Counted from the first letter of the stretch, positions 1 through 48,335 are shown. The stretch is DNA of 48,335 nucleotides from a virus (IMGVR_UViG_3300000292_000047); one strand, 5' to 3'. The notes: a model not told the origin generated them from the letters alone. Made by a program: numbers and translations.

Positions 1-118
1 ATCAGATTTCTCCGGTTTAACCAGGGCGGGTATCGCTCGGTTTCGGGTATAACCTTAGGAAATTTTTTCCCACCTGTAAAGCGCTTTTTATATAAATCTA
101 TAATTATATAATTCTATG
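1..118. repeat. Copy A of ~105-bp conserved promoter/5'-leader repeat (minus-strand sense); first 54 bp identical to window end
   Basis: Near-identical to 7517-7640 and 16999-17108; contains ccggagaaatctgATG (SD + start) in minus sense and AT-rich tatataaatctataattatata block. Confidence 0.8.
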
Positions 119-701
119 CCACTTGCCAGAGAGCATCATGCAACTGGATACCTCCATTGCACTGGTTGCCCCAGCCATGCCAACCATCAGGTAAATCACC
201 GCGAGCAAACAGCTCAATACGAGGAACATCACCTAACAGCCTTACCAGCTTGTCACGAACCACATCAGGCTTCCGAGAATGCTCCAGACGAGGCGATGTA
301 AACGACTGAATGATCCCCGCATCAAGGCGGGTCGGCAATTTGCCTTTTACCGCAAACAAGCAATCTTCACTGTTTGCACGAGTCATATGCCCCATCCCCA
401 TCACCAGCTTATCTGGTTGTCGGCTACCACATTTGTTCCATGTGAAGCCCTTCATGGTCATAAGCCTGAATCCCCATGCTTTCACCACCAGCAACGCTTC
501 TTCTGGCTGAGTCGGAACCCACCACATGGCCAACAAACACGATTCAGGATTAGCAAGCTGCCAGACAGGAATACGAGCAATATCCTCAGCTTTCATCGTT
601 GGATACTTAAAACCAGCTCCACGATTCCCATCCTTACACTTATCTTTGTATTCCCAGGGGGGATCTGCATAAATCAGATTAAACAATGCAATTGCCTCCA
701 T
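114..701 (-). CDS. MT-A70 family DNA N6-adenine methyltransferase
   Basis: 195 aa; N-terminal DPPW motif (LIYADPPWEY); ATG at 699-701 checked, GGAGG upstream. Confidence 0.7.
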   Translation of the reverse strand: MEAIALFNLIYADPPWEYKDKCKDGNRGAGFKYPTMKAEDIARIPVWQLANPESCLLAMWWVPTQPEEALLVVKAWGFRLMTMKGFTWNKCGSRQPDKLVMGMGHMTRANSEDCLFAVKGKLPTRLDAGIIQSFTSPRLEHSRKPDVVRDKLVRLLGDVPRIELFARGDLPDGWHGWGNQCNGGIQLHDALWQVA

Positions 702-1008
702 GTTAGTTGTGCCTCCGGCGCTTATCTCCGGCAGTCATAACGCTGACCAGCTCTACAGCAGACACAACGAAAAGGGCACTAACCAGACTGATTAATGCCC
801 TTGCCTGTTGTGTGCCGGATATCGCCCGACAACGCTGTTTTGGTAACACGGCTACAGTTCCGTGCCGCTCCAGCTTTTACCCCTTTGCGGATAACAGGCC
901 CTGCCTGTAACTTAGCCCCACGTTCGCCCGAAATGCGCACCAGGCACGCATAAAGATGAGCACGAAGAAGTAACTCCACCGCGCTTATCTTTATGTGTGA
1001 GGGTGAAT

Positions 1009-1084
1009 TGGTGGCCCCTACCGGATTTGAACCGATGACCGTGCGATTATGAGTCGCCTGCTCTAACCACTAAGCTAAGGGGCC
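1009..1084 (-). tRNA. tRNA with CAT anticodon (Met or Ile2), CCA encoded
   Basis: Minus-strand reading GGCCCCT..CTCATAA..GGTTCAAATCC..AGGGGCCACCA; 7-bp acceptor stem, T-arm ATCGG/CCGGT, anticodon loop CTCATAA. Confidence 0.8.
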
Positions 1085-1092
1085 ATATTTGA

Positions 1093-1168
1093 TTTGTTTG
1101 TCTGGTGTGGCGCCGCGCACGAAAATCCCAGCCAATAAATTCAGGATTTTTGGGCGCGGCGGCATATC
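1093..1168. other. Long near-perfect inverted repeat / extended hairpin next to the tRNA
   Basis: tgtttgtctg...gcgccgcgc...aaaatcc // ggatttt...gcgcggcgg...cagacaaaca; three nested stem segments. Confidence 0.6.
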
Positions 1169-1253
1169 AGACAAACATGGTTGATGCGTGCGCCCATGAG
1201 AAAAGCGCATAGAATGTTGTAACTATATATTTATATAATTATAGAAATATATA

Positions 1254-1463
1254 TTACTTTCGGCAGTTGATTTCCCATGCCCTGTTATGAGCCAGAATAT
1301 CTTTCTTTGTCTGGCGGTCCATAACATCGATGTCGTGATCAGTCAGGTAGATGGGCTTTACCCAATCACAGGCGGTATCAACCACCACCGGGACGCTTCC
1401 ACGACTCCCGCAGCTCGCGATCAACATCGTCATCAGCCATATGGTTAACACTCTGCTGTACAT
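1254..1463 (-). CDS. Rz1-like outer-membrane spanin lipoprotein (overlaps Rz-like gene)
   Basis: 69 aa; signal sequence with lipobox LIAS-C; overlaps 3' end of upstream ORF in another frame; last gene of lysis cassette. Confidence 0.5.
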   Translation of the reverse strand: MYSRVLTIWLMTMLIASCGSRGSVPVVVDTACDWVKPIYLTDHDIDVMDRQTKKDILAHNRAWEINCRK

Positions 1464-1656
1464 TCCCCGCCTCTTTTGTCACTTCTATACGCCGCTCCGC
1501 AGTGGCTTTTACGGCGGCTGCATTCTCATTAATGCGCTGCTTTTCAGCTTCATCTTCGGCCTTTTCTCGCCCCTTCATACGACCAAAACCAAACGCGCCG
1601 AATGCAACCAATATAATTGTGCCAATAAATGACAAAACGGCCTTCAAACCAGTCAT
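1378..1656 (-). CDS. Rz-like inner-membrane spanin
   Basis: 92 aa; N-terminal TM helix then charged coiled-coil-like region; ATGA start/stop overlap with endolysin. Confidence 0.55.
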   Translation of the reverse strand: MTGLKAVLSFIGTIILVAFGAFGFGRMKGREKAEDEAEKQRINENAAAVKATAERRIEVTKEAGNVQQSVNHMADDDVDRELRESWKRPGGG

Positions 1657-3050: not shown

Positions 3051-3326
3051 TCACAGTAGTGCAGAAAAGAATAGCGGCTTAACTGCTTTCCTCACCTCAC
3101 TAGCGTACATCCCCGCAGCTATCTCAGTTGTGAACAAACGCCCTCCAACTAGCCATGCAACAGGTGCAGATGCCAGGGATGCCAGTGCAATTTCATCTGT
3201 AGCAAGCTCTCTTTCAAGATATTCACGAAATCCGGGGTTAATAGTTACCGTATCCAACATTCTCTGGCGCGCTTCCTTACGTTCACGAATATGGGCAATC
3301 AATTGCTCTTTGGTAAAAGTAGCCAT
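3051..3326 (-). CDS. Hypothetical protein, member of tandem paralogous family
   Basis: Internal ATG at 3324-3326 gives MATFTKEQLI N-terminus shared with 3328-3741 and 4017-4466; IALASL motif. Confidence 0.45.
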   Translation of the reverse strand: MATFTKEQLIAHIRERKEARQRMLDTVTINPGFREYLERELATDEIALASLASAPVAWLVGGRLFTTEIAAGMYASEVRKAVKPLFFSALL

Positions 3327-3327
3327 A

Positions 3328-3741
3328 TCACTTCCCTTTCCCCTGAAGCATGGCGGCGCGGCAGGCATTCCAGCCTGTAGCGTATGCAGCCGCTTTGCTG
3401 CTGCCTTCAACTGGCGCATCCTGCCAATACATTTCTTCCGGCACTACCGGCGCTGGCAAGGCAGCGTGATAGTAGAGTGGCATAGTTTTGTACAGTGGTT
3501 CGCCAGGACTTCCGTCAACCTGATTCCATTCTTCAACCCAGGCATCAACAACCGCTTTGCTGGTTGATACATGTTCTTCTGAATCTACATTTTGTCCTGA
3601 TATACAGAACATAACTGCCTCTGCTTCCAGCGATGCCAGAGCAATTTCATAAGCCCGACGCTCAATATTGTCTCGGACGTCCAGGCTGCCTATGCGCTCT
3701 TTGATTTCTTTAATCAGTTCTTTGTCGGTAAAAGTAGTCAT
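3328..3741 (-). CDS. Hypothetical protein, paralogous family member
   Basis: 137 aa; MTTFTDKELI N-terminus, IALASLEAEAV motif, Pro-rich C-terminal region similar to 4017-4466. Confidence 0.5.
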   Translation of the reverse strand: MTTFTDKELIKEIKERIGSLDVRDNIERRAYEIALASLEAEAVMFCISGQNVDSEEHVSTSKAVVDAWVEEWNQVDGSPGEPLYKTMPLYYHAALPAPVVPEEMYWQDAPVEGSSKAAAYATGWNACRAAMLQGKGK

Positions 3742-3751
3742 GTGTTAGTCC

Positions 3752-4015
3752 TTATCCTGCTGTGCTTTCAACTGATGAGGGGAACAAAATCTTTTCATCA
3801 AACCCTGCATTCATATCATGGACAGCAACACACCAATCCATTGACGAACGATTATCAAGAGCCTCCATGATTTCATCCATGCGGCGCAGGTCATACAGGT
3901 AAATGCTTTTATCGCCAATGGTGTAAAAACCAATTTTTTTCGGTGATGGGCAGCGATCAAGAACGTCCTGTAATTCGTTCAACCATGCCCGTTCTTTTTT
4001 TGTTAAAGTTGCCAT
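3752..4015 (-). CDS. Hypothetical protein (shares MATLTKKE N-terminal motif)
   Basis: 87 aa ORF; start context gccatatcactctcctttga shared with neighbours. Confidence 0.45.
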   Translation of the reverse strand: MATLTKKERAWLNELQDVLDRCPSPKKIGFYTIGDKSIYLYDLRRMDEIMEALDNRSSMDWCVAVHDMNAGFDEKILFPSSVESTAG

Positions 4016-4016
4016 A

Positions 4017-4466
4017 TCACTCTCCTTTGATGCGAATGTTTACAGCCTGACAAGCCTCTTCGAGAACCCAGTCAACAGCGTCTTTCCATGCTCCGGTTTC
4101 GACTGGCGGATTTTCACGCTTAACCTGTTCATAGAAGCGCACTGCTTTAATCAATCCTTCTGGTATCAGTGGCACAGGCGGGGGAGTGAATAACGCCTGA
4201 ATTTCATAGCTCGGCCTGTCGTTGCAATCCTCTTTTGTCGGTACATATTTCCAGTCACCAACCCACGGCTCCCCCTGAGAGTCCGTAACGCCTTTTTTCA
4301 CGTAGCGATATCGCCACGCGACTGGCTCTGCTTCCAACGATGCCAGTGCGATACGAAACACATTGGCAAGCAGACTGCTTGAAGATTGGTTATCGTGCGC
4401 CGGGTCGCTCAGGAAGCCTGTGATGAATGATTTAATCTCCGCACGTTCTTTGGTAATAGTGGTCAT
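4017..4466 (-). CDS. Hypothetical protein, paralogous family member
   Basis: 149 aa; MTTITKERAEI, IALASLEAEPVAW motifs. Confidence 0.5.
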   Translation of the reverse strand: MTTITKERAEIKSFITGFLSDPAHDNQSSSSLLANVFRIALASLEAEPVAWRYRYVKKGVTDSQGEPWVGDWKYVPTKEDCNDRPSYEIQALFTPPPVPLIPEGLIKAVRFYEQVKRENPPVETGAWKDAVDWVLEEACQAVNIRIKGE

Positions 4467-6371: not shown

Positions 6372-6416
6372 TGTCGAGGCGTCCTTATACATTTATATAA
6401 ATATATAATTCTATAT

Positions 6417-6448: not shown

Positions 6449-7516
6449 TCAGGCTTTCAATAGCGATTCTTTCAGATATCGGGCATCAGCCAGGGCGTTT
6501 GGCGTAATCTTGCGAACCCATGCATTACGGGTTGGACTCCACTTAAAGGCGCGTGATTTAAGCAGCGAACGAATGTTTGCCTCTGGTTTGCCAGGGAAAT
6601 AAAACAGGATGCGGTTATCCTCTGGATCTATCTCCATAGAAAAGCCGTCGTATTCTTCGCGCTGTGCTCCTGTTACAGACTTGACCGATTCAAGCTCCTT
6701 AATACGGCTCTGTAGTCGTTTGATTTCGGCGTTATTGTTGCTCAGTGCGTATGAAGGGAATCCGATGCGCCCACAGAAATCTCCGGCCAGTAACTCTTTG
6801 GCTTCGCTTTCTGTAAACCTGAGATCGATTAATGCAGAAAGCTGCTGTATTTGGTCTTTTTTGTATTTGCGAATGGCCTTATTTGCGGCCTTCATTTTGA
6901 CGTGTGACTTCATGCAGCCTTGCAGCTTACGAAGCAACTTAAATAGCGCATCAGGATCATCAGACGAAATTCCATTACGACCAACACCTGCGGCTTTGCT
7001 CTCGTAGTGTGATGCTTTACTTTCGCATTCAACAAACGCTTTTCTGAATAACGCATCAGCTTTAGACAAACGGCGGCGATGGCCTTTCGCGCTATAATGG
7101 TCAACTAAAATCGGCTGGCCTAACGGGATCACATCCAACAGGTCATGCGCTCGCTTATGCGCTACCGCACCTTCTTTTCTGGCTTTTTCTGCACGAGCAA
7201 TATATCGGGCAAGACGCGCGTTCTGGCGTTCCTGATAGGTGTTTACGTAATCATCTCCGCGCTGCTGCTGTTCAAGCCATGCTTTGCGCAGATCTTCTGT
7301 TACGTCCACCAGCTCCGCAGGGATACAACCAGTTTGGGCTTCATAAGAGTAACCATCCTCATAGATACGCCCATCGTCTTCAACAAAGAAAAAGGTTTCG
7401 TGCTCATCGCTTTTGACCATACGACCATTAACATGGCGTAATAGGTAGCCAGTATCAGTGCTTAACAGGCTGTTAGGGTTGTTGATCCAGTCAGAAATAA
7501 TTACTTGTTTATTCAT
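6449..7516 (-). CDS. Conserved hypothetical protein driven by leader copy B (possibly DUF3560-like)
   Basis: 355 aa from ATG 7514-7516 (MNKQVIISDW) immediately after leader SD ccggagaaatctg; family assignment from memory only. Confidence 0.55.
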   Translation of the reverse strand: MNKQVIISDWINNPNSLLSTDTGYLLRHVNGRMVKSDEHETFFFVEDDGRIYEDGYSYEAQTGCIPAELVDVTEDLRKAWLEQQQRGDDYVNTYQERQNARLARYIARAEKARKEGAVAHKRAHDLLDVIPLGQPILVDHYSAKGHRRRLSKADALFRKAFVECESKASHYESKAAGVGRNGISSDDPDALFKLLRKLQGCMKSHVKMKAANKAIRKYKKDQIQQLSALIDLRFTESEAKELLAGDFCGRIGFPSYALSNNNAEIKRLQSRIKELESVKSVTGAQREEYDGFSMEIDPEDNRILFYFPGKPEANIRSLLKSRAFKWSPTRNAWVRKITPNALADARYLKESLLKA

Positions 7517-7640
7517 CAGATTTCTCCGGTTTAACCAGGGCGGGTATCGCTCGGTTTCGGGTATAACCATAGGAAATTTTTTCCCACCTGTAAAGCACTT
7601 TTTATATAAATCTATAATTATATATTTATAGATTTTCGAT
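7517..7640. repeat. Copy B of ~105-bp promoter/5'-leader repeat
   Basis: Near-identical to 1-118 and 16999-17108. Confidence 0.85.
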
Positions 7641-10209: not shown

Positions 10210-10866
10210 ATGAAAAGCAACGACGAGAACATCAAGAAAGAAATAGGTCTGCGCATTCAGACTCTACGGAAACAATCCGGCATGACTGCCGGAGATCTCC
10301 AGCAAGTCACTGGAATAGGCTTAAGCACCTTGCAGAACTATGAGGCCGGATTAAGACAACCATCTATACCTGCCATCAAGAAAATCGCGCACGCCCTGAA
10401 AGCATCAGCGCCTTATATCGCGTGCTTAACAGATAACCCGTTCCCACCCCAGAATACTAACGCTCCTGTTATTCCTGGGCTTGTAGCTATAAAAAATGAC
10501 ATAGCATCGCACGCCGGAGAAAAGCCAGTGCTGGCGATAGAACAGGAGATTCTACGAAGCAAGAACATCAACCCATCGTCTCTGTCAGTTCTCCAGAGCA
10601 ACGATGAGTTAATGTCACCAACAATATCCCCTGGCTCCCAAGTCCTGATTAATACAGACGATACAGAGATTCATGAGGGGATCTATGCCCTTGAAGACAG
10701 AAATGGCCTGGTTGTTTTGAGGCACTGTAGAGTCATACCGGGTGACAATGCTGTTATGCTGTCAACCGAAAGGGATGCTGAAATGAACACTAAGCATCTG
10801 AATAACGAGGAATTTAAGCGTTATAAAGTTCTTGGCCGCGTAGTTAGTGTTGTCAACTGGTTATGA
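10210..10866 (+). CDS. CI-type phage repressor (XRE HTH + S24 LexA-like peptidase domain)
   Basis: 218 aa; N-terminal HTH (LQQVTGIGLSTLQNYEAG), C-terminal S24-like region; divergent from early operon. Confidence 0.75.
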   Translation: MKSNDENIKKEIGLRIQTLRKQSGMTAGDLQQVTGIGLSTLQNYEAGLRQPSIPAIKKIAHALKASAPYIACLTDNPFPPQNTNAPVIPGLVAIKNDIASHAGEKPVLAIEQEILRSKNINPSSLSVLQSNDELMSPTISPGSQVLINTDDTEIHEGIYALEDRNGLVVLRHCRVIPGDNAVMLSTERDAEMNTKHLNNEEFKRYKVLGRVVSVVNWL

Positions 10867-11333: not shown

Positions 11334-11360
11334 CTGAAAGCGGGCTAACGCCCGCTTACA

Positions 11361-11460
11361 TGATTATAGATTTATATAATTATATAAAACGCTTTTCATC
11401 CGCCAAAAAGTTGGTTATGCTTACCTCGTTCTATAAATATAGATTTATAGAATTATATAA
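11361..11460. promoter_or_regulatory. AT-rich repeat block upstream of parA (candidate centromere/operator)
   Basis: ttatagatttatataattatataa and ctataaatatagatttatagaattatataa; same motif as in leader repeats. Confidence 0.55.
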
Positions 11461-11483
11461 CCAAACACATGGAGTCTCGACAA

Positions 11484-12137
11484 ATGACTATCTCTGTAGG
11501 TATTTTCAACGGAAAAGGCGGCGTAACCAAATCAACAATTGCCCGTGCTTTAGCAGTTGCTTATGCAAAGGCCGGCTGGAATGTATGCCTGATCGATATG
11601 GATGTGCTTAACGGAACGGTAACGCGTTGGGTACAACGCAGAATGGCCAACAATATCGAACCTGCAATCGCGGCGCAGCCGTGCGGCACGCCATCACAAG
11701 TCCAGAAAATCATCGAATCAGAAGTATACGACCTGGTTATCGTCGATGGCGGTGCCTACGCATCTGAATCAGTACCGAAGCTCTCTGAATTTCTGGATAT
11801 GGTTATTTTGCCAACCAGATTCTCTACCGATGACCTAGAAACCACCGTTAACACAGCTCACGGCATCGTTAAAAAGGGTGTGCCAATCAAGAAAATTTGC
11901 ATGGTGTTCTCAGGCGCGGCTGAAAACGAAGCCGACTACATTGAAGCCCAAGAGTACCTAGCTAATACGCCATACTTTGTTGTCGATAAGTACATTCCCC
12001 ACAAGCCAGCTCTGAGCAAAGCTCAGGATAAGGGCTTAAGCCTCATTGAATGCTCATACGTTGCGCCACGCAAAAAGGCAGACGACGTTATTCAGGGGAT
12101 TATCAACCAGCTTGAGGCTCTGACTACTGCCGCGTAA
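11484..12137 (+). CDS. parA: ParA/ParF-type partition ATPase (alternative ATG at 11469)
   Basis: Deviant Walker A GKGGVTKST; MinD/ParA fold; GGAG SD before ATG 11484. Confidence 0.8.
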   Translation: MTISVGIFNGKGGVTKSTIARALAVAYAKAGWNVCLIDMDVLNGTVTRWVQRRMANNIEPAIAAQPCGTPSQVQKIIESEVYDLVIVDGGAYASESVPKLSEFLDMVILPTRFSTDDLETTVNTAHGIVKKGVPIKKICMVFSGAAENEADYIEAQEYLANTPYFVVDKYIPHKPALSKAQDKGLSLIECSYVAPRKKADDVIQGIINQLEALTTAA

Positions 12138-12168
12138 TATATAATTATAGTTTTATAGATTTATATAA
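12136..12168. promoter_or_regulatory. AT-rich repeat block between parA and parG-like gene
   Basis: atataattatagttttatagatttatata. Confidence 0.5.
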
Positions 12169-12650: not shown

Positions 12651-12674
12651 TAAAAAAGGCCCCCGAAGGGGCCT
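12651..12674. terminator. Hairpin terminator, usable on minus strand (bidirectional candidate)
   Basis: aggcccc-cgaa-ggggcct perfect stem; A-run on plus gives U-run on minus. Confidence 0.6.
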
Positions 12675-12679
12675 AATCG

Positions 12680-13227: not shown

Positions 13228-13309
13228 TTTCTGCCTACCAATAAACCCACGCTATGTGGTTGTCTCTGTTAAAATCCCGCCGTATTGACATGAATGCGCC
13301 ATTGGTGGA

Positions 13310-32261: not shown

Positions 32262-32270
32262 TTTGTCACC

Positions 32271-35781: not shown

Positions 35782-36825
35782 TTAAACCACCTTAGCCACC
35801 AGATAGGCATCAGCCACACCAGGATTAGGCAGTGGAGATGACTTCATGGCAACATAACGGCCAGCCGGCTTACGAGTTACCCAAGTGTCTGGAACTCGTG
35901 GTGACTCAACAATCGTTAGAGTCTTTTCGGCGTCATCTACAAGCTCTACAGCACCATACAGCATCGTTCCTCGACCAGGAGAGCCAAAGAGGATCTTATC
36001 TTCCGGTACTAATGGTTCAGGTTTTCCTGTTTTATCATTGCGAATAAGTTCGTCGTAACCATAAAAATCGACACCTTCAAGATTGCCATAATGAGTTACG
36101 CCTTCTTCTAACTCTTTAGGCTCAATATACCCAAGCTCTTTTCGGCGATTATCAAGATATTTAGTTACTGCTTCATTTTTAACGAAGGCATCAACAACTT
36201 TTGCGCCCATTACGGCAACACGAGGTGTAAAACCTGAAGTTAGTGATACCCGACGTTTCCAGTTGCGAACATTGACTAACGGATCTGATTTTGCTGCACT
36301 CCATAAATCATCACCTGTCAGTTCAAGATATGGTTTATCTCCTTCCTCTTCAGGCCAAAAATAAACTGTGTCATCCACTCCTTCACCAACAATATCAACC
36401 TGCCCCGTAAACAAGACTTGTGCACACATCCATTCTTCACGGCGGTTAACCATTTCATCAAGCTCAAGCAAATCTTTACCTAATTGCTCGGCGGCTCGTT
36501 CTGCTGGCGATTTTGCGTTGTAAATATTCTCACCCGGAAGCCTGTTTAAAAGCAGCTCGGCTGTTGTTACCAAATCAGGTGCAACAAGTGGTGGCTCCAG
36601 AGTTCTCGTTACAAAGCCGCGTCGCTCAACGGTTTTTGAGCCAAAACCTTTACCAACAAACGGAGCCATAGTACGGCCACCGCGAACAAAATCCAGATCA
36701 ACTTTCTTTGTATTAAAGGTCTGAACACCAGGAAAAAAGGTACGAAGAAGAAAACGACGAGCCTTGAAATTCTGAATAACAGGCTCAAGCATCGTACGTC
36801 GTTCAAAAATATCAATATTCGGCAT
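35782..36825 (-). CDS. Major capsid protein (lambda gpE-like)
   Basis: 347 aa; position after protease and decoration genes. Confidence 0.8.
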   Translation of the reverse strand: MPNIDIFERRTMLEPVIQNFKARRFLLRTFFPGVQTFNTKKVDLDFVRGGRTMAPFVGKGFGSKTVERRGFVTRTLEPPLVAPDLVTTAELLLNRLPGENIYNAKSPAERAAEQLGKDLLELDEMVNRREEWMCAQVLFTGQVDIVGEGVDDTVYFWPEEEGDKPYLELTGDDLWSAAKSDPLVNVRNWKRRVSLTSGFTPRVAVMGAKVVDAFVKNEAVTKYLDNRRKELGYIEPKELEEGVTHYGNLEGVDFYGYDELIRNDKTGKPEPLVPEDKILFGSPGRGTMLYGAVELVDDAEKTLTIVESPRVPDTWVTRKPAGRYVAMKSSPLPNPGVADAYLVAKVV

Positions 36826-36845
36826 AAAAATACGACCTCTTTATA

Positions 36846-37229
36846 TTATGCAGATGGATTTTGTTGTGCGGTATTAAGGAATATTCCAACCTTCCGGCAA
36901 GCCAGATATACATCGGCAACTTTTGCTGATTCAGGAAGGATAACCGCATGTGCATTGAACATTCCGGTCAGCCATGCTGTTCCGACTTGCGCTGAATCAG
37001 TCGCATCAATATTGTGTTGAGCGATACAATACGGTTCTTTTGCCTCCCCTTCACCAGAGAGATTTATTGGCGCCACAGTGACAACATTTGTTGTCTGATC
37101 AATACTGACAAAAGCAAGTAACTCACCCCGTTTTACTTTACCGCTGGCAAGTTTAATACTTGTCGGAATTGCTGGCATACCACCAGAAATAATCAGATTA
37201 TCTGGTTCAAATGAAAAAGACTCTCGCAT
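36846..37229 (-). CDS. Head decoration-like protein
   Basis: 127 aa between protease/scaffold and major capsid. Confidence 0.45.
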   Translation of the reverse strand: MRESFSFEPDNLIISGGMPAIPTSIKLASGKVKRGELLAFVSIDQTTNVVTVAPINLSGEGEAKEPYCIAQHNIDATDSAQVGTAWLTGMFNAHAVILPESAKVADVYLACRKVGIFLNTAQQNPSA

Positions 37230-37238
37230 AAACTCACC

Positions 37239-38327
37239 TTAATTTTTATCGCGGTTTTTAAATACTGACCCAATAACATTTTTTACTGCTTCAGCCTGTT
37301 TGTTGCCGTTGTTTTCTGGTTGATTAACATCAACTGAATCATTCACCTCACTTGCGTCTTCTTGCCGTTGATTAAGAAAGTTTTTGTTACGCGCTCGCTC
37401 TGCATTCATAATTTCCAAAGCAAGTTCAGCCGCAGAAACTCCTGTTTTGAATTTTGCATTCTTAACCAGGTCGTCATGACCAGGAATCACGCTATTCTCG
37501 ATTGTTTCAATGCGCTCGCGTTCTGATTTAACGCCCTCGTCTTTACCAGCATTAAAAACCTGATTGTATAATTCTGGATATTTATTTTTTAATTCATCAA
37601 GAGTCACAATATCGTCCTCATTTTGTTCATTTGATTCAGTAGATAACTCATTTTTATTTTGCGGCAACTTTGCGAGTGAATCAGGTAATTTTGAAAACCT
37701 TGATGCTTCAAAAGTTATTCCATTAAGCGAAAGCATCCCTTCCTTTATAGAAGCGGATAAGCGTATTGGTTTTTCAACTTCGTCAGCAAATCCAAGCTCT
37801 ACAGCCTCTTCTGCATTTAGCCATGTTTCCTGATCCATTAGTTCAATTAATTTATCCTCAGAAAGCCCTGTTTTCTCCTTATATGCAGATAAAATACTAT
37901 TGCGTATCTTATCCATCATCTCAGCAATATCACGCAATTCATCCGCATCGCCAGCAGCAAATATCCACGGATTATGGATCATCATCATAGCATTAGATGG
38001 GATAATAATTTTATCACCCGCCATTGCAATAATAGTTGCAGCCGATGCAGCAATCCCGTCGATATAAACCGTAATATTCGCCTTATGACGCTTTAATGAT
38101 GAAAGAATAGCTTGAGCAGTAAAAACAGAACCACCATAACTATTAATTTTTACGTTGATAGTATTTGATGAAATATCCTTTAATTTATTAACTATGTCAG
38201 AAGAAGAAACCTCATCAAATTCACCAATATACCCGTAAATTAAAAGTTCAGCCGGAGAGTCATCTTCACCCGTGCTATTTTTTATTTCCCACCAATTAGG
38301 CATCATCAGTCTCCATATTTTGTTCAT
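37239..38327 (-). CDS. Head maturation protease (ClpP/S49 fold) with C-terminal scaffold-like domain
   Basis: SYGGSVFTAQAILSSL..GIAASAATIIAMAGDKIIIPSNAMMMIHNP; acidic coiled-coil C-terminus. Confidence 0.8.
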   Translation of the reverse strand: MNKIWRLMMPNWWEIKNSTGEDDSPAELLIYGYIGEFDEVSSSDIVNKLKDISSNTINVKINSYGGSVFTAQAILSSLKRHKANITVYIDGIAASAATIIAMAGDKIIIPSNAMMMIHNPWIFAAGDADELRDIAEMMDKIRNSILSAYKEKTGLSEDKLIELMDQETWLNAEEAVELGFADEVEKPIRLSASIKEGMLSLNGITFEASRFSKLPDSLAKLPQNKNELSTESNEQNEDDIVTLDELKNKYPELYNQVFNAGKDEGVKSERERIETIENSVIPGHDDLVKNAKFKTGVSAAELALEIMNAERARNKNFLNQRQEDASEVNDSVDVNQPENNGNKQAEAVKNVIGSVFKNRDKN

Positions 38328-40117: not shown

Positions 40118-41974
40118 CTATATGGTTACGCCTTTACTTATAACTCTACGGCGTCTTCTACGTATACCTGACGAGTTCTGCACATACACATTACCTCGCA
40201 TTTCCTGTTCGGCAAGCCAGTTAAAATTAGGGTTCAGAATTTCCATCGCGGCAGTTGCATAGTTACGGCAATCAAGAGGCTCGTTACGCTCGTAGACTTT
40301 CACCCACTTTTCTTTTGTCTGCCCATTTTTATATTCAAATATTTTTTTCTCTGATAATAATCCTTTAAAGTATTCGGTATCATATCCTCTGTCAGAATCT
40401 AATGGGAAATGCATATAACCAGGACCAGGATCATGTAGTTTAATTCTTGCCATGATGGTCCCTTTACCATCATCAACCCCCAAATTAAACAACATAGCAC
40501 CCACACGGTTATTATTACTTGGCTTTCCTATAAATGGTAAACCTACCCCACCACGCCCCCTGATAGAGTATATTCGCCTTGATTCTCTCGGCTTAGTAAA
40601 GCGATATACCTCTGTCGTAAAATGCCCACCAGAGTCAATACAAACGGAAGAAATCTGTAATTTTCGACCGTCACGGAATGACCAGCTACGGAGTAAGTAT
40701 TCATCAAGTTGTTTCCAGACAACATCTTGTGCGGGATCACCTGGGAATATTTTATATTCTATCCCCCATGACTCCTTACCTTTTCCCCAACCGACCAATT
40801 CACAAACTAAATACGTGTCCTGTACGTCAACACCAGCACTTAACAATAAAACATCATCTGGTAAAAACTCTTCAAACCTTATTCTGCGTTGCAACAAGTA
40901 TTCAGGATCGATATCGTCTTTAGCATCCTCTTTCCATGGCTCACCCAGCTTAAGGTTAATAAACTCCATTAATCCATTTTTATCGCGGTTTCTGGTTGCT
41001 TCCGTAAATTCTTCAACCAGCTCTGACAATGCAACCCACGGGGAGTAAAGACTGTTAATATGAAAACCAACAATACCTTTAACTCCAGTATGTTCAGCTA
41101 TCCATACCCCCTTCGCCAACCAATCAACGTCTGGTTTACCAGATCCGCGCATAATCCCGCCGCACTCACAGCACTCATATCTGGCCGTTTCCGGTAACGC
41201 CTCACCTGAATCGCTCTTATCCCATCTGACTTGCGACCATTTCATCACCTGCATGGTGCCACAACATGGGCAAGGAACATGGTAGTAACGCTGATCGGAG
41301 AGCTTAAACCACTTGTGGATTTTGCTTGTTTCCTCCAAAACAGGAGTAGAAACAAAAACTTTCTTACGATTATGAAAGTTGGTAGTACGCTGAATACCTA
41401 GTTTTAGTGGGTCGCCCTCCTGCGTCACACCGTAACGATCAATCTCATCAGCTAACAGTATTCGAATTGGCCTGGATGCAAGACCTGCTGGGGAATTAGC
41501 ACCAACAAGTGCTATATATCCACCAGCGTAATGCTTCATACGTATAGTCGTGCTGGACTTTTTGGCTGCACCGCGCCCCTCTTTCCCTTCATGCAGCTTG
41601 TGTTTCAAACCAGGGGAATATTTGAACGTCGGATCAATACGCTCTTTTGAAAAAGCCTCAGCCGCCTCTACCGTTGGATAAATCATCAACTGAGGAGATG
41701 GCTCCTGATCTGCAAAGTAACCCATAACATTTAGCTGTAATTCGGATTTACCAATTTGCGAGCTACATTGCATCACTACTGTTTCTGTATCAGCGTCACC
41801 AATAACATCCATTGGTTCACGCAAATATGGCACTCGGCTTGTACGCCACGGCCCTGGCTCTGGAGACGTTCCCGGCGCTACATGACGATACTTATCAGCC
41901 CATTCGGAAACAGTTAGCCGTGATTTAGGGCGAAGCGCACGGAAAAAAGCGGTGCTCCATACTGTTTCGCCCAT
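40118..41974 (-). CDS. Terminase large subunit
   Basis: 618 aa; ATPase N-terminal region and nuclease C-terminal region; position. Confidence 0.85.
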   Translation of the reverse strand: MGETVWSTAFFRALRPKSRLTVSEWADKYRHVAPGTSPEPGPWRTSRVPYLREPMDVIGDADTETVVMQCSSQIGKSELQLNVMGYFADQEPSPQLMIYPTVEAAEAFSKERIDPTFKYSPGLKHKLHEGKEGRGAAKKSSTTIRMKHYAGGYIALVGANSPAGLASRPIRILLADEIDRYGVTQEGDPLKLGIQRTTNFHNRKKVFVSTPVLEETSKIHKWFKLSDQRYYHVPCPCCGTMQVMKWSQVRWDKSDSGEALPETARYECCECGGIMRGSGKPDVDWLAKGVWIAEHTGVKGIVGFHINSLYSPWVALSELVEEFTEATRNRDKNGLMEFINLKLGEPWKEDAKDDIDPEYLLQRRIRFEEFLPDDVLLLSAGVDVQDTYLVCELVGWGKGKESWGIEYKIFPGDPAQDVVWKQLDEYLLRSWSFRDGRKLQISSVCIDSGGHFTTEVYRFTKPRESRRIYSIRGRGGVGLPFIGKPSNNNRVGAMLFNLGVDDGKGTIMARIKLHDPGPGYMHFPLDSDRGYDTEYFKGLLSEKKIFEYKNGQTKEKWVKVYERNEPLDCRNYATAAMEILNPNFNWLAEQEMRGNVYVQNSSGIRRRRRRVISKGVTI

Positions 41975-41979: not shown

Positions 41980-42531
41980 TTATTCTTCCTGCTTAATAAA
42001 TCGGGATTCCTGGAGCGCCTGAAGCGCAAAATTAATCTCGTCTTCAATAATGCGCTCGATCTCCCTGGCTGTTTTGCCTTCACAACGGGGAGCTGCTCTT
42101 GGAGCAATACTAAATAAGCGGCTACGCAATTCATTAGCTGCCAGAAATGCATCATCCCTGACCGCATCTTTAGCGATGAGAGAGCCTTCCTTTTCTTCAA
42201 ATTCAAGGCGTTTCAGCTTTGCCTGATAAATTTTTTCTGCGGTCTTAGCCTTGTTGAATTGCACCGCAACACCGGAAGTACCACCAGCTAATCCGGCATC
42301 ATCAGCGGGTAACTCTGGTTGTTCCGAAGATATCCCATGCCCTCTTTTTCCATTTTCAGCAGATACCTCACGACCAACCTGTCGGCTCGCTTCATAAGCC
42401 GCACTGGCTTTATCAAAATCCAGCTTGCCGCTTTTCAGCACTGGAATGCGACCGGAACGACAGAGCTTCGTAACCATTGCCGGAGAAATACCTTTCCGGC
42501 GGGCAAACTCTGACTTACTGACGATGGCCAT
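41980..42531 (-). CDS. Terminase small subunit (HTH)
   Basis: Track start TTG; ATG at 42529-42531; N-terminal HTH SKSEFARRKGISPAMVTKL. Confidence 0.55.
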   Translation of the reverse strand: MAIVSKSEFARRKGISPAMVTKLCRSGRIPVLKSGKLDFDKASAAYEASRQVGREVSAENGKRGHGISSEQPELPADDAGLAGGTSGVAVQFNKAKTAEKIYQAKLKRLEFEEKEGSLIAKDAVRDDAFLAANELRSRLFSIAPRAAPRCEGKTAREIERIIEDEINFALQALQESRFIKQEE

Positions 42532-43121
42532 TACTTGCAACCATTAGCAAGATACTGAACAAATCCCTCATGCGTTTCATGCGCGTCGTGGTACTGACGA
42601 TAAACATCCAGCAACAATGCAATTTCCATATCCGTCGCGGGAATACGTTCTTTATCAATAGCCAGGTACTTAATTTGAACAACAGGGGAAGAATTATCGT
42701 CTTCTTCCTGCGGCTGTTCATCGCTTAACATTTCGTCAAGCTCTGCATCATTAAACCCAAGCAGATCAATATCAAAATCATCATCCATTAACTCTTTGAC
42801 TTCTTCGGCCAGAAGCTGCATATCCCAGCCAGCATTTAAGGCCAGCTTGTTATCTGCAATCCTGTAAGCCTTCTTCTGTTTTTCAGAAAGGTTACTCAAC
42901 CGAATCGCCGGAACTTTATCCATTTCCAGAATTTCGGCTGCTGCAAGCCGACCATGCCCCGCAATCAGTTCATTCTTTTCATCGATCAGCACAGGATTAG
43001 TGAAACCGAACTCACGGATACTGTTCACCAACTGTTCAACTTGCTCATCTGAATGAGTCCGTGAATTTTTGGCATATCTGAGCAGCTTACCGACTGGTAA
43101 ATATTCGATTTTTAGAGTCAT
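42531..43121 (-). CDS. ParB-like nuclease domain protein
   Basis: 196 aa; ParB N-terminal fold motifs (LIAGHGRLAAA); paralog of 45788-46411. Confidence 0.7.
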   Translation of the reverse strand: MTLKIEYLPVGKLLRYAKNSRTHSDEQVEQLVNSIREFGFTNPVLIDEKNELIAGHGRLAAAEILEMDKVPAIRLSNLSEKQKKAYRIADNKLALNAGWDMQLLAEEVKELMDDDFDIDLLGFNDAELDEMLSDEQPQEEDDNSSPVVQIKYLAIDKERIPATDMEIALLLDVYRQYHDAHETHEGFVQYLANGCK

Positions 43122-43678
43122 TTTTTAACCACCATAACACAACAGGTTAAAGAAAACTGTTTAACTTATTGATACTAAAAGAGAAAAATGACGATCTTTT
43201 TACTCATAAAAAATCACACAAACCAGCATAATTATCTGATTTTATTAAGTTTTTATAAGTAAAAAGGATCTTGCGATGGTGTTTTGGTTAAAAGATTGGA
43301 TGTATTTGCATGATTTATAACGATTTTTATCAGAACAACATCACATTGGTTAAAGATCTGCGCGTATCTTGATGATCTAAAAGAAAATTTTCTACTTTCT
43401 TTTTACCAGCACAAATACAGCAAAAAATCACGTTTTCCCGATATTTTTCAATGAGATGAGTAAATTTCTTTTACCGCAACTTTTAACCTAACTTTTTTCA
43501 CGTTTAGCTAGCCGAACATCGGGGTTCGAATGACCCGCATCCAACGCTTTTGGCCAGAAGGACCCAATTCTGCCGGACGATGAAACGATGCTCGTGCTCA
43601 CCCACAGACAGCCAGCGAGCGACGCTACAGAACACAGTGAATACACCCTGCATAACAACACCATCAACCACACGATGA

Positions 43679-44414: not shown

Positions 44415-45788
44415 CTACTTAATCAACGGCCGGAAAGCCGCCAGCACATCATCAGATCGTCCGATTGTTGAACCACCAGGCAACGGCAACTCAAACTCAA
44501 AACGAACAGCTTTCTCCAGACTCTCCCAGCGAAGAGAATCATCGTTAATAACGTGCAAATACCAGCTCTTACAGTTGAATATTGACCGCTTAATCCTGAA
44601 ACCATGTACACGACACAACTGCTTCACTTCATCATCAGAGTGAAACTTCTGGTAAAACCAGTGCCCCTTCCGGTACAACGCGGTAAAACCGTTATGATCA
44701 ATAAAATAAAGCCGGCTTTTGGAACTCGCCGCTTGTGTTTGCTTCAGGACTGTTTCCAGCTCTCCACGGCTACGACCAGAAAAGAATATTGACCCACCAG
44801 CTTTACACAGGCCTTTCAGAACCGTCAGAACAGACCATTCAGCCTCGACACTATCGACCGAGTTCAAAACGCTATCGCAAATCACGTAGTCGTAACGCCC
44901 TCGCGTTTTTAAGTCGTCCACCAGCGTATCAATCATCCGGTTTGTTGCGGTCCTATCCAGAGTGTTTCCAGCGCCCTTACGGCGGAAAAGCTCGAGATCA
45001 TGCAGGTTATATCCCTTTGCCCTGAGCATTCGCGCGTAGTCTCCCTGCCCCGAACCAAAATCAATTCCTCTTGGCGTCTTGGCAATGATCGGGAGGATCA
45101 ACGACTCATACAGGTTTGATTTCAGGCTGCCACCATTACGCAACCGCATAAGCTGCGCATACGTCTGGATGTATGTTGTTTTCTCCAGATGAGAATACTC
45201 AAATACACCATAAGTTTTATTCAGATAACTTTGGTATTTTTCCTTCTCAACATCAGGGATCACAAACACCGTTAGCGGTGTGCGCGTCATTTTCGCTGCT
45301 AATGCATACTGAGCACAGTGAATAACCTCACCAGACTGAGTAGCAACACAACCACCCCACGGACCATACTTGATAACCAGTTCCGCTATGTTCTTTCGAA
45401 CATATGCCATTTTCGCGCGCATATTGCCTGAGATCTGGCTTGCCGATACCTGAACAAAACCATGCTTATCTTCCAGACCGGACACCCTGCAACGCTCATC
45501 TCCGCTATCAAAATCCGTTCCGTTATGCAGTTGGTTAAACCGTACTTCGTCGTATACCGTCGTTTCACAGGGCAACACATACACCGCAGCACGCGTTATT
45601 CCCAACTTACGTAGCGCCTTCGTCCTTTGGTGTCCCGCCACCAGCAAATCGCCGCGCACTATCAATGGCTTCACAAGCCCCAGCTCCCTGACGCTTTCCG
45701 CCAGCCTCGCAAGATCATCCTCACCGATAAAACGCGGGTTATATTCCGCGCCGCGTAGGTGCGTTATGTCGTAATTCAGGTGAAGCAT
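44415..45788 (-). CDS. ParB-like domain fused to class I SAM-dependent methyltransferase
   Basis: N-terminal ParB-like region (LVAGHQRTKAL); C-terminal GIDFGSGQGDYA motif I; ATG 45786-45788 with GGAGG SD, TGATG coupling to upstream gene. Confidence 0.7.
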   Translation of the reverse strand: MLHLNYDITHLRGAEYNPRFIGEDDLARLAESVRELGLVKPLIVRGDLLVAGHQRTKALRKLGITRAAVYVLPCETTVYDEVRFNQLHNGTDFDSGDERCRVSGLEDKHGFVQVSASQISGNMRAKMAYVRKNIAELVIKYGPWGGCVATQSGEVIHCAQYALAAKMTRTPLTVFVIPDVEKEKYQSYLNKTYGVFEYSHLEKTTYIQTYAQLMRLRNGGSLKSNLYESLILPIIAKTPRGIDFGSGQGDYARMLRAKGYNLHDLELFRRKGAGNTLDRTATNRMIDTLVDDLKTRGRYDYVICDSVLNSVDSVEAEWSVLTVLKGLCKAGGSIFFSGRSRGELETVLKQTQAASSKSRLYFIDHNGFTALYRKGHWFYQKFHSDDEVKQLCRVHGFRIKRSIFNCKSWYLHVINDDSLRWESLEKAVRFEFELPLPGGSTIGRSDDVLAAFRPLIK

Positions 45789-46411
45789 CAGCACACCTCC
45801 CCAGCCAGCAATGCGGATACAAATCCGATATAGCTGCCATTATCATCAACATAACGAGACACCGCGCAGTCAAAACGATCCGCTTCCTCATCCGTTGCCG
45901 GGATTTTATGACCTCCAAATGACAGGTACTGAACTTTTACGCCTGATTTGGCCTCATCCTTCTCAAATGGGATATCCATACCCTCTGTGTCATCGTAGAC
46001 CGCCGCACTCAATAAGTTATCCAGTTCGCGCTGAGTAAAACCAATTGAGTCCAGAGCAAAATCATCGGCCGCAAGATCTGCAAGCTCCGCGCTTAACAAC
46101 TCTTCATCCCAACCAGCATTCAGCGGAATACGGTTGTCGGCCAGACGATATGCCTTCTTCTGATTCTCCGTTAGCCCAGCCAGAACAATGCAGGGAACAT
46201 CATCCATCCCCAACTGAGTGGCCGCAGCAATTCGACCATGACCAGCAATTACAACGTTGTTCTCGTCTATCAGGATCGGATTAGTCCATCCGTACTCCTG
46301 TATGCTGGCAACAATCTGATCTACCTGCTCCACGGAGTGTGTGCGAGCGTTCTTTTCATAACCAATCAACACAGAAAGTGGTAAAGAAACCACATTAAGA
46401 TGTTTTGTCAT
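45788..46411 (-). CDS. ParB-like nuclease domain protein
   Basis: 207 aa; VIAGHGRIAAA; shares C-terminal region with 42531-43121. Confidence 0.7.
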   Translation of the reverse strand: MTKHLNVVSLPLSVLIGYEKNARTHSVEQVDQIVASIQEYGWTNPILIDENNVVIAGHGRIAAATQLGMDDVPCIVLAGLTENQKKAYRLADNRIPLNAGWDEELLSAELADLAADDFALDSIGFTQRELDNLLSAAVYDDTEGMDIPFEKDEAKSGVKVQYLSFGGHKIPATDEEADRFDCAVSRYVDDNGSYIGFVSALLAGEVC

Positions 46412-46645: not shown

Positions 46646-47056
46646 TTACGCAGGGATCAAACGGATGCGGCCGTTATTTACCTCAATACGAGAGTATTCC
46701 GGCTTACCATCAACGATTCCAGTAATGACAAGTTCGCCATCAGACGAGCATTCTTCTTTGTCGTCTTCAAGTACCGCGCCTTCTGGCAAATCAACACAGG
46801 CAAAAACAGGGCAGCCTGGATAACGATCATCTTCCATCGCAATCAACATCGATTCACCGAACCACTCTGTGGTAGCACGACCATCAGCCGCCTGATAGTG
46901 AATCAAATACTGGTTTTCGCCATTTGCATACTGAGCACGGGCTTGAACTTCTCCCCACTCTTCACTGATACGCATTGTTACCAGTTGGGATAATTCAAAC
47001 TTAAACGGAACAGACTCTGCACCAATGGCAATCGGTTTATCTTCTTTCTTTTCCAT
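46646..47056 (-). CDS. Hypothetical protein (internally duplicated domain?)
   Basis: 136 aa, ATG verified. Confidence 0.45.
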   Translation of the reverse strand: MEKKEDKPIAIGAESVPFKFELSQLVTMRISEEWGEVQARAQYANGENQYLIHYQAADGRATTEWFGESMLIAMEDDRYPGCPVFACVDLPEGAVLEDDKEECSSDGELVITGIVDGKPEYSRIEVNNGRIRLIPA

Positions 47057-47103
47057 AACATCACCTGAAAATAAAAGCCCCGCGACACGCGAGGCTGTAA
47101 GAG

Positions 47104-47256
47104 TTACTTTCGATAGAAATCAAGGCGCATTTGCTCCCGCTTAAGCCGAAAAGCTCTCTGCGCCACTAAGATGCGCCACAGGACACCAGCAATAACCACC
47201 AGCGAGATACAAAAACACACAGCCACAACCATCAGAAAAATGCCAAGACCATTCAT
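47104..47256 (-). CDS. Unannotated small membrane peptide (50 aa)
   Basis: Hand translation: MNGLGIFLMVVAVCFCISLVVIAGVLWRILVAQRAFRLKREQMRLDFYRK; ATGA overlap with stop of 47253-47465; below track size cut-off. Confidence 0.4.
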   Translation of the reverse strand: MNGLGIFLMVVAVCFCISLVVIAGVLWRILVAQRAFRLKREQMRLDFYRK

Positions 47257-47465
47257 GAAACTATCCATTTTTCAATGAATACCTCCAGTAATATCAAGAG
47301 ATACGCCGTACCCAGCGCGGTTCCTACCGATATAGCTAAGACAAACCTCAAAGATAACGAGGTATCTTTCGCTTTTCTCCAGACGTAAGCGCCAGCCAGA
47401 AATACCAACAAATCTCTTATTGGAAGCGGAAACCAGAACAAATCACTCGGCATAAGCACGATCAT
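47253..47465 (-). CDS. Small two-helix membrane protein
   Basis: 70 aa, hydrophobic. Confidence 0.4.
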   Translation of the reverse strand: MIVLMPSDLFWFPLPIRDLLVFLAGAYVWRKAKDTSLSLRFVLAISVGTALGTAYLLILLEVFIEKWIVS

Positions 47466-47742
47466 CTTCCGCTGCTGATTTACACGCCGCAGTTACTGAT
47501 ATATTGATAACCGGTGCGCTAATCGTGATGGACGACTCTGTCGGTTGACGCGATATAACTGAACGATGGTTATCAATGAAGTCCACAATCTCATTCAGGC
47601 ATTCTTTAGCTGCCTCATCGTGACTTTTTCCGTATGCTTCACGGAGGACTTTCATCCTCATCATTGCTCCGTCACATATAGTCGAAAGCGCGTAAAGCAC
47701 ATCACTAACCGCCATTTCTTTTTTGGTGCTTGTCGAAGGCAT
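47443..47742 (-). CDS. Hypothetical protein
   Basis: 99 aa; AGGAGA SD. Confidence 0.45.
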   Translation of the reverse strand: MPSTSTKKEMAVSDVLYALSTICDGAMMRMKVLREAYGKSHDEAAKECLNEIVDFIDNHRSVISRQPTESSITISAPVINISVTAACKSAAEDDRAYAE

Positions 47743-47816
47743 CCCATGTTCTCCTTTGTCTGGATGTAAAAAAGCCCCGGCAATTGCCGAGGCTCGTTGT
47801 TCGTTATCGTTACGGT

Positions 47817-48014
47817 TTAATGCTCGCGTCGTCCGGCGACAACTTCGGATTTGTATTTCAGGTCGCCCAGCAAGAATTGCAGTTTAAGCATCTTTGCCGC
47901 CGTGTAGTTCCCTGATTCCACAACCTCTTTCATGAGGTCATAAACGGCCGCTACATCATCAGCCAGGAACTCTTTGCGTTGCTGCTCAGTCGCACGTTTG
48001 AAGGAAATACGCAT
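47817..48014 (-). CDS. Hypothetical protein
   Basis: 65 aa from ATG 48012-48014; TGATG coupling to upstream gene. Confidence 0.4.
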   Translation of the reverse strand: MRISFKRATEQQRKEFLADDVAAVYDLMKEVVESGNYTAAKMLKLQFLLGDLKYKSEVVAGRREH

Positions 48015-48283
48015 CACTCATCATCTCCTGCCGCACATACAACCTCACAAAAAAAATCAGCAGAATGTTTCTCCTTGAACGAATGACGCTCAAAACCGCA
48101 CTCAATATCAGGCGCAAAAACATCCACCACATACGGTCTTTCAGAATGTTTGTTTTCCCAACGATAAACCGTAGTGACGTTGAAATGTTTTAACGCTTCA
48201 CGGAACTCAACGCTGCCCGTCAGGTTTTTTGAGGTCAGGTATTGCAGGAGGTTTTTTACTACTTCACGGTCTTGTACTTTCAT
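48014..48283 (-). CDS. Hypothetical protein, first gene behind leader copy A/D
   Basis: 89 aa; ATG 48281-48283 directly after ccggagaaatctg. Confidence 0.5.
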   Translation of the reverse strand: MKVQDREVVKNLLQYLTSKNLTGSVEFREALKHFNVTTVYRWENKHSERPYVVDVFAPDIECGFERHSFKEKHSADFFCEVVCAAGDDE

Positions 48284-48335
48284 CAGATTTCTCCGGTTTA
48301 ACCAGGGCGGGTATCGCTCGGTTTCGGGTATAACC
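48282..48335. repeat. Copy D of leader repeat, identical to window positions 1-54
   Basis: 54/54 identity with window start. Confidence 0.9.

Follow-up and report, generated by a model that had tools for sequence, protein, structure and literature searches.

The prophage of phage P1 is a circular plasmid, endowed with a Rep protein, partition of the ParA type and an addiction module; it carries an immI-like C4 antisense RNA beside an antirepressor, and short operator-like sites, the C1 operators, are scattered over many of its promoters; N15, by its side, is a linear plasmid prophage. Pfeifer et al. 2021 sorted enterobacterial phage-plasmids into the groups P1, N15, SSU5/pHCM2, pKpn, pSLy3 and pMT1, with pSLy3, pKpn and pMT1 being members of the SSU5 supercommunity (PMC7969092). 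The window analysed here, the whole 48,335-nucleotide stretch of the viral contig IMGVR_UViG_3300000292_000047, encodes an element to which the same phage-plasmid concept applies and which has very likely been counted in such censuses. It resembles P1 in the features named above, the dispersed sites included and with a ParA ATPase on the side of partition, but differs in size (48 kb versus ~93 kb), in its gpA cos-type terminase (versus pac/headful packaging), in its IncFII-type RepA (versus P1-type RepA) and in having no annotated Cre (versus Cre-lox). Compared with the P1-like group (90-100 kb, P1-type RepA of IncY/p0111, Cre-lox, pac headful), only the C4/antirepressor module is P1-like. An N15-like assignment, which would call for a protelomerase and a linear plasmid with hairpin ends, was likewise discarded, as the relatives' annotation contains no protelomerase and the closed relatives are circular records, and an assignment to pSLy3 was rejected, that group lying within the SSU5 supercommunity.

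The original prediction held that the two ends overlap by 54 bp and that the window is probably a complete circular replicon of ~48.28 kb. Self-comparison bore out the overlap: positions 48282-48335 are base-for-base identical to 1-54, 54 being the longest suffix that equals a prefix, and the chance of such a match (~4^-54) is negligible. The right copy (48282-48335) is redundant and leaves a unique circle of 1-48281, and the left copy (1-54) is part of a promoter-leader module (module A, see below). It had also been stated that, at both ends, the junction cuts a leader repeat at the identical point, which is true with the refinement that this module exists in three genomic copies, the terminal 54-mer being present three times in the window (starts at 1, 7515 and 48282). 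An exact 57-bp repeat is common to leader copies A and B (48279-48335 and 7512-7568); its last base is the final base of the window and its last 54-mer is the overlap. The two copies diverge at position 55 (T in A, A in B), and the window starts 54 bases before this divergence point, i.e. k-1 for k=55. The window ends are the last 54-mer common to A and B, as expected from a branching node in a k=55 de Bruijn graph, and they are set by a repeat node of the assembly graph rather than by a physical DNA end. GC skew is uniform, with the same value on either side of the join. Since the 54-mer in question is repeated internally, with three copies in all, the overlap alone does not prove closure; it is weaker evidence than it appears, and it is comparative evidence that closes the circle. 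More generally, a terminal overlap within an internal repeat needs comparative or read support before circularity is accepted.

Such comparative evidence comes from the ECOR 39 plasmid RCS82_pI (NZ_LT985302.1), a closed circular plasmid of 47,789 bp that differs in size from the window by 492 bp and has the same circular order, with 46,375 of 48,281 bases (46.4 of 48.3 kb) aligned at 99.1-99.8% identity in five ordered blocks round the whole circle. In RCS82_pI the two sides of the join 48281|1 lie next to each other, at record bases 26641|26640. Both elements carry RepA, ParA, terminase, tail genes, a hexapeptide transferase and three leader modules, and they differ in a 1.4-kb accessory cassette (window 3054-4453, Ea22-like region) and in ~150 bp near 13.9 kb. 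The plasmid of E. coli ATCC 25922 (NZ_CP009073.1, 48,488 bp) is also collinear with the window, with the join at adjacent bases 32647|32646, and this plasmid and ~60 other plasmids of 46-57 kb from complete E. coli genomes have the same backbone and gene order, a contiguous join and three leader modules. Unlike the window, the ATCC 25922 plasmid bears a further HTH gene of 0.8 kb upstream of C4, and a Hin-like invertase with alternative tail-fibre segments where the window has the hexapeptide transferase; this invertase is the only recombinase in the two closed relatives.

A synthetic 4-kb junction was found in one piece, at 98-99.4% identity, in 65 E. coli records and 55 PLSDB plasmids (47-50 kb). 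When 5,426 complete E. coli genomes were searched with a 1.2-kb junction probe (threshold E<=1e-100), 69 places lay on plasmids and one on a chromosome; the 60 top-ranking records measured 46-57 kb, the exception being a 94-kb record that holds two copies. An unbroken join occurs in 61 plasmid-sized records of these complete genomes (in NZ_CP020518.1 the junction lies near record position 46563), Yersinia phage vB_YpM_39 crosses it without an indel, vB_YpM_41 and vB_YpM_44 are also intact there, and an IMG/VR contig of 68.5 kb spans it intact as well. An exact junction pattern that is valid on the ATCC 25922 plasmid gave no match in IMG/VR and in GTDB representative genomes, though a protein-based search did yield IMG/VR relatives. 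The predicted complete circle is thus supported, at 48,281 bp and by collinear closed plasmids, while the overlap that had been offered as its basis proved insufficient alone. We infer closure of the window's own molecule from these relatives and conclude that the window is, with high probability, a complete, circularly closed phage-plasmid of Enterobacteriaceae of ~48.3 kb, written linearly with a 54-bp overlap and cut at a point that is an assembler artefact.

Three other readings of the ends have to be weighed. The terminal copies might be different genomic leader copies, and the contig a repeat-broken piece of something larger, either an integrated prophage or a bigger plasmid, as could be suspected from ends that lie exactly on a k=55 repeat node within a three-copy 54-mer; the complete relatives, however, all have three modules, never four, each before the same gene, and the left and right flanks of the window adjoin in over 60 closed plasmids that match it in size. 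The one chromosomal place that carries the junction region among the 5,426 genomes would fit an integrated form; the other 69 of the 70 strong junction places are on plasmid records. The prediction had found no integrase and had proposed a search for host flanks: the two closed relatives have no annotated integrase, the window-specific ORFs are without a recombinase domain in Pfam, and no host gene was found. The 68.5-kb IMG/VR contig does bear additional phage DNA, yet this DNA departs at window 3.0-5.5 kb and not at the ends, and the join is intact. The contig is rejected as evidence of a host flank: the extra 20.7 kb is a lambdoid prophage linked to the backbone via the shared Ea22-like cassette, which shows that recombinants or chimeras exist. 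We consider an origin from a larger molecule very improbable.

Slightly less probable still is a linear virion genome with the 54 bp as its genuine direct terminal repeat, that is, physical ends with terminal redundancy. Although such repeats often account for matching contig ends in viral assemblies, the terminase is of the lambda gpA type, which we take to be a cos enzyme, and the ends lie on a graph node inside a promoter-leader, where they separate an operon from its first gene. The related phage records open ~4.8 kb away, beside the packaging genes, and the closed plasmid relatives are circular with a single copy of the segment at that locus. Equally remote is a mis-resolved repeat that hides either two smaller circles, of ~7.5 kb and 40.8 kb, or a different order of segments, produced by an exchange of partners at the exact 57-bp repeat of copies A and B. 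This repeat (7512-7568 and 48279-48335) permits other graph paths, but the window order matches that of independently closed circular relatives round the whole circle and the 7.5-kb segment has no replication gene.

The complete circular phage-plasmid was said to carry phage structural, immunity, replication and partition genes, and matches in Pfam, Rfam and PHROG, together with annotation transferred from the relatives, bear this out, with a ParA ATPase as the partition gene. A plasmid replication initiator RepA of the IncFII_repA family is encoded at 19264-20244 on the minus strand (Pfam PF02387, E=1.3e-43; also annotated by PGAP in the relatives). CopA-like antisense control of an IncFII-type repA was considered and set aside, with no Rfam match at gathering score and sub-threshold unrelated ones at 18-21 kb, and no convincing iterons were found near repA. 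A ParA partition ATPase (11469-12137, plus strand; Pfam CbiA/ParA/MipZ) is flanked by AT-rich arrays of 8-bp periodicity at 11358-11459 and 12139-12167 and is followed by an 82-aa ORF (12181-12429), which is a candidate ParA partner and for which searches gave no Pfam match and no PDB sequence match. An addiction module of a HigB/RelE-like toxin and an HTH antitoxin lies at 17155-17807 (minus strand), as annotated in relatives in which the segment is 99% identical and in which the toxin bears the names 'RelE/ParE family toxin' and 'higB2'. There is strong support that the element persists as a circular plasmid by means of an IncFII-type RepA and a ParA ATPase, and that it has a HigBA-like addiction module.

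The immunity genes are P1-like in part. A candidate CI/XRE-type HTH repressor gene (10210-10866, plus strand; Pfam HTH_3 E=4.5e-11; PGAP 'XRE family transcriptional regulator') is divergent from the early operon, and a P1 immI-like secondary immunity region (13320-14898, plus strand) was recognised by Rfam (RF01394, 67.7 bits; RF01695, 77.8 bits) and Pfam matches. On the plus strand, this region comprises an isrK-like RNA (13320-13392), a C4 antisense RNA (13417-13505) and an ORF6N/Rha antirepressor (13747-14898; Pfam ORF6N and Phage_pRha). There is strong support for a CI-type repressor in combination with a P1-like C4 RNA/antirepressor circuit.

The virion and packaging genes lie on the minus strand. 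A gpA-type terminase large subunit is encoded at 40118-41974 (Pfam GpA_ATPase, 7e-76; GpA_nuclease, 1e-84) and the small subunit at 41980-42540 (phrog_57, 7e-42), while the virion module (21238-38327) was annotated from closed plasmids at 98-99.8% identity and comprises head protease, decoration protein, major capsid, sheath, tube, tape measure, baseplate, tail fibre and fibre assembly genes. By the annotation of these 98-99.8% identical closed relatives, portal, holins and endolysin are present too and the virion, packaging and lysis set is complete. The virion module is 99.7% identical to the record vB_EcoM-613R2; this record and 473R2 are PHASTER-cut pieces of draft contigs and are uninformative on topology. 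The gene set strongly suggests that the element encodes a complete myovirus virion with a lambda-like head, a gpA terminase and a contractile tail.

Close relatives are deposited as phages infecting Yersinia pestis (vB_YpM_39/41/44, OR545053-55, ~49 kb, host Y. pestis EV76-CN). They are 96-99% identical to the window over ~41.8 kb and collinear with it, the join included, and differ from it in the accessory cassettes and the tail-fibre/invertase region. Their deposition as phage isolates at this degree of identity suggests that the family may form infectious virions; a search of the available literature on the three phages found no publication. The phage records open at window position 43535 (GGTCATTCGAACCCC...), 414 nt upstream of the first gene of the packaging cluster, ParB_N, and this opening point marks a candidate cos region at 43480-43600 (minus strand). 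Upon induction, the gpA-type terminase would cut concatemers at cos near 43.5 kb, and virion DNA would probably be linear, unit-length and recircularising on entry; we infer both the cos position and the form of the virion DNA from the terminase type and the openings of the phage records.

The family is common, as it is present in 74 of 5,426 complete E. coli genomes (~1%), including that of the quality-control strain ATCC 25922, on whose plasmid as a phage-plasmid a literature search found nothing specific. The element is ordinary and already known, and its topology holds nothing new. For the contig itself, the proper class is a plasmid prophage rather than an integrated prophage or a fragment, and the contig is usable as a complete genome of 48,281 bp after trimming of the 54 redundant bases.

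The module that contains the window ends is a promoter-leader of 116 nt present as a three-copy direct repeat on the minus strand, copies B (116-nt unit at 7515-7630) and C (16991-17106) being 97% and 92% identical to A (1-116), respectively. Module A (1-118, with the copy at 48282-48335) serves, across the join, the 89-aa gene at 48014-48283 (minus strand; ORF list and PHROG match to phrog_6143), whose ATG spans the start of the overlap; module B (7515-7632) lies upstream of a DUF3560 gene (6449-7516) and module C (16991-17108) upstream of a 126-aa gene (16611-16991). That leader 1-118 belongs to gene 48014-48283 had been anticipated and is upheld by the relatives, every one of which has this gene (MKVQDREV...) right after this module copy; the homologue of its product in the ATCC 25922 plasmid is WP_000867916.1, at the same location. 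The gene is therefore to be annotated jointly with the promoter-leader. An MT-A70 family DNA methyltransferase gene (114-701, minus strand; an ORF annotated from the ATCC 25922 plasmid at ~99% identity) ends just upstream of leader A. Module A is made up of four AT-rich 8-bp units in an array (89-118), a weak sigma70-like motif (TTTACA-17-TAAGGT) recognised by eye only, a 5'UTR of ~54 nt and a GGAG ribosome-binding site; a strict sigma70 promoter scan of 1-1400 found none.

The 5'UTR core of the leader is retained even where the relatives' RepA is only 81-85% identical, which points to a possible additional post-transcriptional control. Pairing of the C4 RNA with the three leaders was considered and dismissed, as no complementary k-mer of at least 7 bases was found and the duplex energies (-41 to -45.5 kcal/mol) lie inside those of shuffled controls (mean -42.2, sd 5.6). 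Likewise, a conserved and stable RNA fold of the 5'UTR is unsupported, folding z-scores being -0.8 to -2.9 and the structures unlike between copies, and variation among the 31 leader copies compared is too small for covariation analysis.

Including the three within the strictly conserved promoter-leader modules, eight AT-rich arrays (ATAKAWTT x4, 8-bp units) are dispersed over the element, at the promoters of parA, of the 82-aa ORF after parA, of the tRNA/methyltransferase operon and of other operons. It is conceivable, albeit rather unlikely, that the eight arrays form one regulon of a single small protein, such as the putative ParA partner, which would then be both a centromere binder and a global switch. 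Such a regulon would couple plasmid maintenance with phage gene expression, and the same dual role is played in plasmids by the omega protein of pSM19035 and by ParG/parH of TP228.

Direct comparison of the two ends confirmed the overlap on which the original prediction of a complete circular replicon was based, as positions 48282-48335 equal 1-54, the longest suffix of the window that is also a prefix is exactly 54 bases and the probability of such a match by chance is negligible. The terminal 54-mer occurs three times in the window because the overlap sits in a 116-nt promoter-leader module present in three copies (A, B and C). Copies A and B have an exact 57-bp stretch in common (48279-48335 = 7512-7568); the window starts exactly 54 bases before they diverge and stops at the final base of this stretch, since copy A has T at position 55 and copy B has A. 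This is the pattern expected when a contig path both begins and finishes at one branching (k-1)-mer node of a k=55 de Bruijn graph. The ends are therefore assembler-defined and without physical meaning, and the overlap alone is no proof of closure, because any contig starting and ending on a repeated node shows it.

We joined the window ends in silico (48281|1, with the 54-bp overlap trimmed) and searched other records for the junction. A 4-kb query (2 kb either side of the join) aligned as a single piece at 98-99.4% identity to 65 records of complete E. coli genomes and to 55 PLSDB plasmids, nearly all of them 47-50 kb. A tighter 1.2-kb probe that leaves out the tRNA matched 74 of 5,426 complete E. 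coli genomes, with 69 plasmid places and 1 chromosomal place at E<=1e-100 in this set; its best 60 records measure 46-57 kb each, except for one 94-kb ATCC 25922 record with two copies. In the latter (NZ_CP032086.1, 94,204 bp), the junction region occurs twice at about twice the unit size; the record represents a dimeric plasmid or an artefact of assembly.

In a whole-circle alignment, the unique sequence of 48,281 bp followed E. coli ECOR 39 plasmid RCS82_pI (closed circular, 47,789 bp) in collinear order all the way round; five ordered blocks covered 46,375 bases at 99.1-99.8% identity, and the join fell on adjacent bases of that record (26641|26640). The 48,488-bp plasmid of ATCC 25922 is likewise collinear round the circle (join at 32647|32646), the join is crossed without indel in Yersinia phage vB_YpM_39 (49,027 bp, deposited as circular) and a metagenome-derived IMG/VR contig crosses it within one 6.3-kb alignment. 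GC skew is uniformly negative and the same at either window end. Three relatives leave only 3054-4453 and 13828-13974 uncovered; the former is a cassette swap rather than a flank, because backbone lies on both sides, and its segment 3433-4331 matches Ea22-like cassettes of lambdoid phages. With the join contiguous in closed plasmids, in phage vB_YpM_39 and in the IMG/VR contig, these comparisons support the reading of the whole window as one circular replicon, and we consider it very probable that this replicon is complete at 48,281 bp.

A possible counter-example is this same IMG/VR contig (IMGVR_UViG_3300029841_000009, L026), which at 68.5 kb is longer than the circle and tiles in the window order 5498 -> 48281|1 -> 2998. 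Its window-like part is preceded by 20.7 kb without window match, a lambdoid prophage that has a terminase and a portal of its own and is joined to the phage-plasmid backbone via common Ea22-like genes (L026 12020-21065, contig positions 11692-20737). Whether it arose by natural recombination or as a chimera of metagenome assembly, this contig does not contradict closure, because the extra DNA leaves within a variable accessory block, away from the window ends. The Ea22-like block (window ~3.0-5.7 kb) is a hotspot of exchange with lambdoid phages.

The replication, partition, immunity and structural genes that had been predicted are all present according to Pfam, Rfam and the annotation of relatives. 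They include RepA (19264-20244, minus strand; IncFII_repA family, E=1.3e-43), a ParA ATPase (11469-12137, Pfam), a RelE/HigB-like toxin with HTH antitoxin (17155-17807, annotated in 99% identical relatives), a CI/XRE-type HTH protein (10210-10866, Pfam) and a P1-immI-like set of isrK-like RNA, C4 antisense RNA and ORF6N/Rha antirepressor (13320-14898, Rfam and Pfam). The immunity region varies within the family: immediately upstream of the isrK/C4 region, the ATCC 25922 plasmid has ~0.8 kb (19495-20299) with a gene for an additional HTH protein, and the window has only 10 bp (13233-13242). Directly downstream of the partition genes lies a full-length Rfam match to ryfA (12652-12948, minus strand; 141.8 bits versus a gathering score of 80). 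RNAs of this type code for TimP, the small toxin in a type I toxin-antitoxin pair, and the locus may be a second addiction module. ARAGORN and the Yersinia phage record call a tRNA gene with CAT anticodon (1009-1084, minus strand) tRNA-Met, but the PGAP annotation of the plasmid relatives has it as tRNA-Ile; it may encode a lysidine-modified tRNA-Ile2. The annotations of both closed relatives (ECOR 39 and ATCC 25922 plasmids) lack an integrase; the sole recombinase is a Hin-like invertase, carried by the ATCC 25922 plasmid and by the Yersinia phages. The window-specific ORFs are short and without Pfam hits.

The large terminase (40118-41974, lambda gpA ATPase and nuclease domains) and small terminase (41980-42540, PHROG hit) are followed by portal, ClpP-like protease, decoration protein, capsid, sheath, tube, tape measure, baseplate and fibre genes, as annotated in relatives. 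The host-range block (20458-23906) is variable: where the ATCC 25922 plasmid and Yersinia phages have the Hin-like invertase and alternative fibre segments, a hexapeptide-repeat transferase and one tail-fibre/assembly set are found in the window (transferase at 20711-21274, Pfam) and in the ECOR 39 plasmid. Three separate ParB_N-domain proteins are encoded upstream of the terminase genes (42531-43121, 44415-45794 and 45788-46411, minus strand), and one of them carries a fused methyltransferase domain; since none is adjacent to parA, they are unlikely to be the partition partner.

As sequence and comparison show, the ~48-kb circular plasmid form, seen in many closed genomes, combines replication, partition and addiction functions with a full virion gene set; the element is a phage-plasmid, a temperate myovirus kept as a circular plasmid. 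A gpA-type terminase suggests lambda-like packaging at a cos site, such that virion DNA would be a unit-length linear molecule cut at cos that recircularises after injection. The records of Yersinia phages vB_YpM_39 and 41 open exactly at window position 43535, and that of 44 within ~12 bases. The minus-strand sequence there is GGTCATTCGAACCCC; the site lies in a GC-rich patch followed by AT-rich repeats, 414 nt upstream of the ParB_N gene heading the packaging cluster. With modest confidence, we propose 43480-43600 (minus strand) as a candidate cos site, and the TTTTAACCAA-like motifs in the adjacent repeats could be small-terminase binding sites. The window ends lie ~4.8 kb away and are unrelated to packaging.

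The element is already known, being a close variant of RCS82_pI (>99% identity across 96% of the window length) from a family that about 1.4% of complete E. coli genomes carry, reference strain ATCC 25922 among them. The closure finding is correct, ordinary and of use in annotation. The element resembles P1 in lifestyle and in the C4/antirepressor module, but differs in size, Rep type, packaging type and Cre, which places it outside the P1 group; an N15-like identity is ruled out, the relatives being circular and without protelomerase. It lies outside the SSU5/pSLy3 supergroup (PMC7969092), and no census name for the family emerged from the phage-plasmid papers searched.

The leader module comprises an array of four 8-bp units, a weak sigma70-like element, a ~54-nt 5'UTR and a GGAG ribosome-binding site. 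Copy A (48282-48335 into 1-116), copy B (7515-7630, 97% identical) and copy C (16991-17106, 92% identical) precede the MKVQDREV... gene (48014-48283), the DUF3560 gene (6449-7516) and the MSMIKIRKNAF... gene (16611-16991), respectively. Every complete relative has exactly three modules, always before the same genes, so the leader at 1-118 indeed serves 48014-48283, as predicted. The UTR core is kept even where RepA of relatives is only 81-85% identical; no convincing conserved fold was detected in the leader, and pairing of C4 RNA with it was tested and rejected. AT-rich arrays, each of about four 8-bp units (ATAKAWTT) in tandem, occur in eight intergenic places: 89-118, 1217-1253, 6386-6415, 7603-7632, 11358-11393, 11430-11459, 12139-12167 and 17079-17108 (31 pattern matches versus 0.03 expected by chance). 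The arrays sit at promoter regions; three belong to the leader modules, two lie upstream of parA and one is between parA and an 82-aa ORF, with others elsewhere. They may be dispersed operators or centromere-like sites for some regulator.
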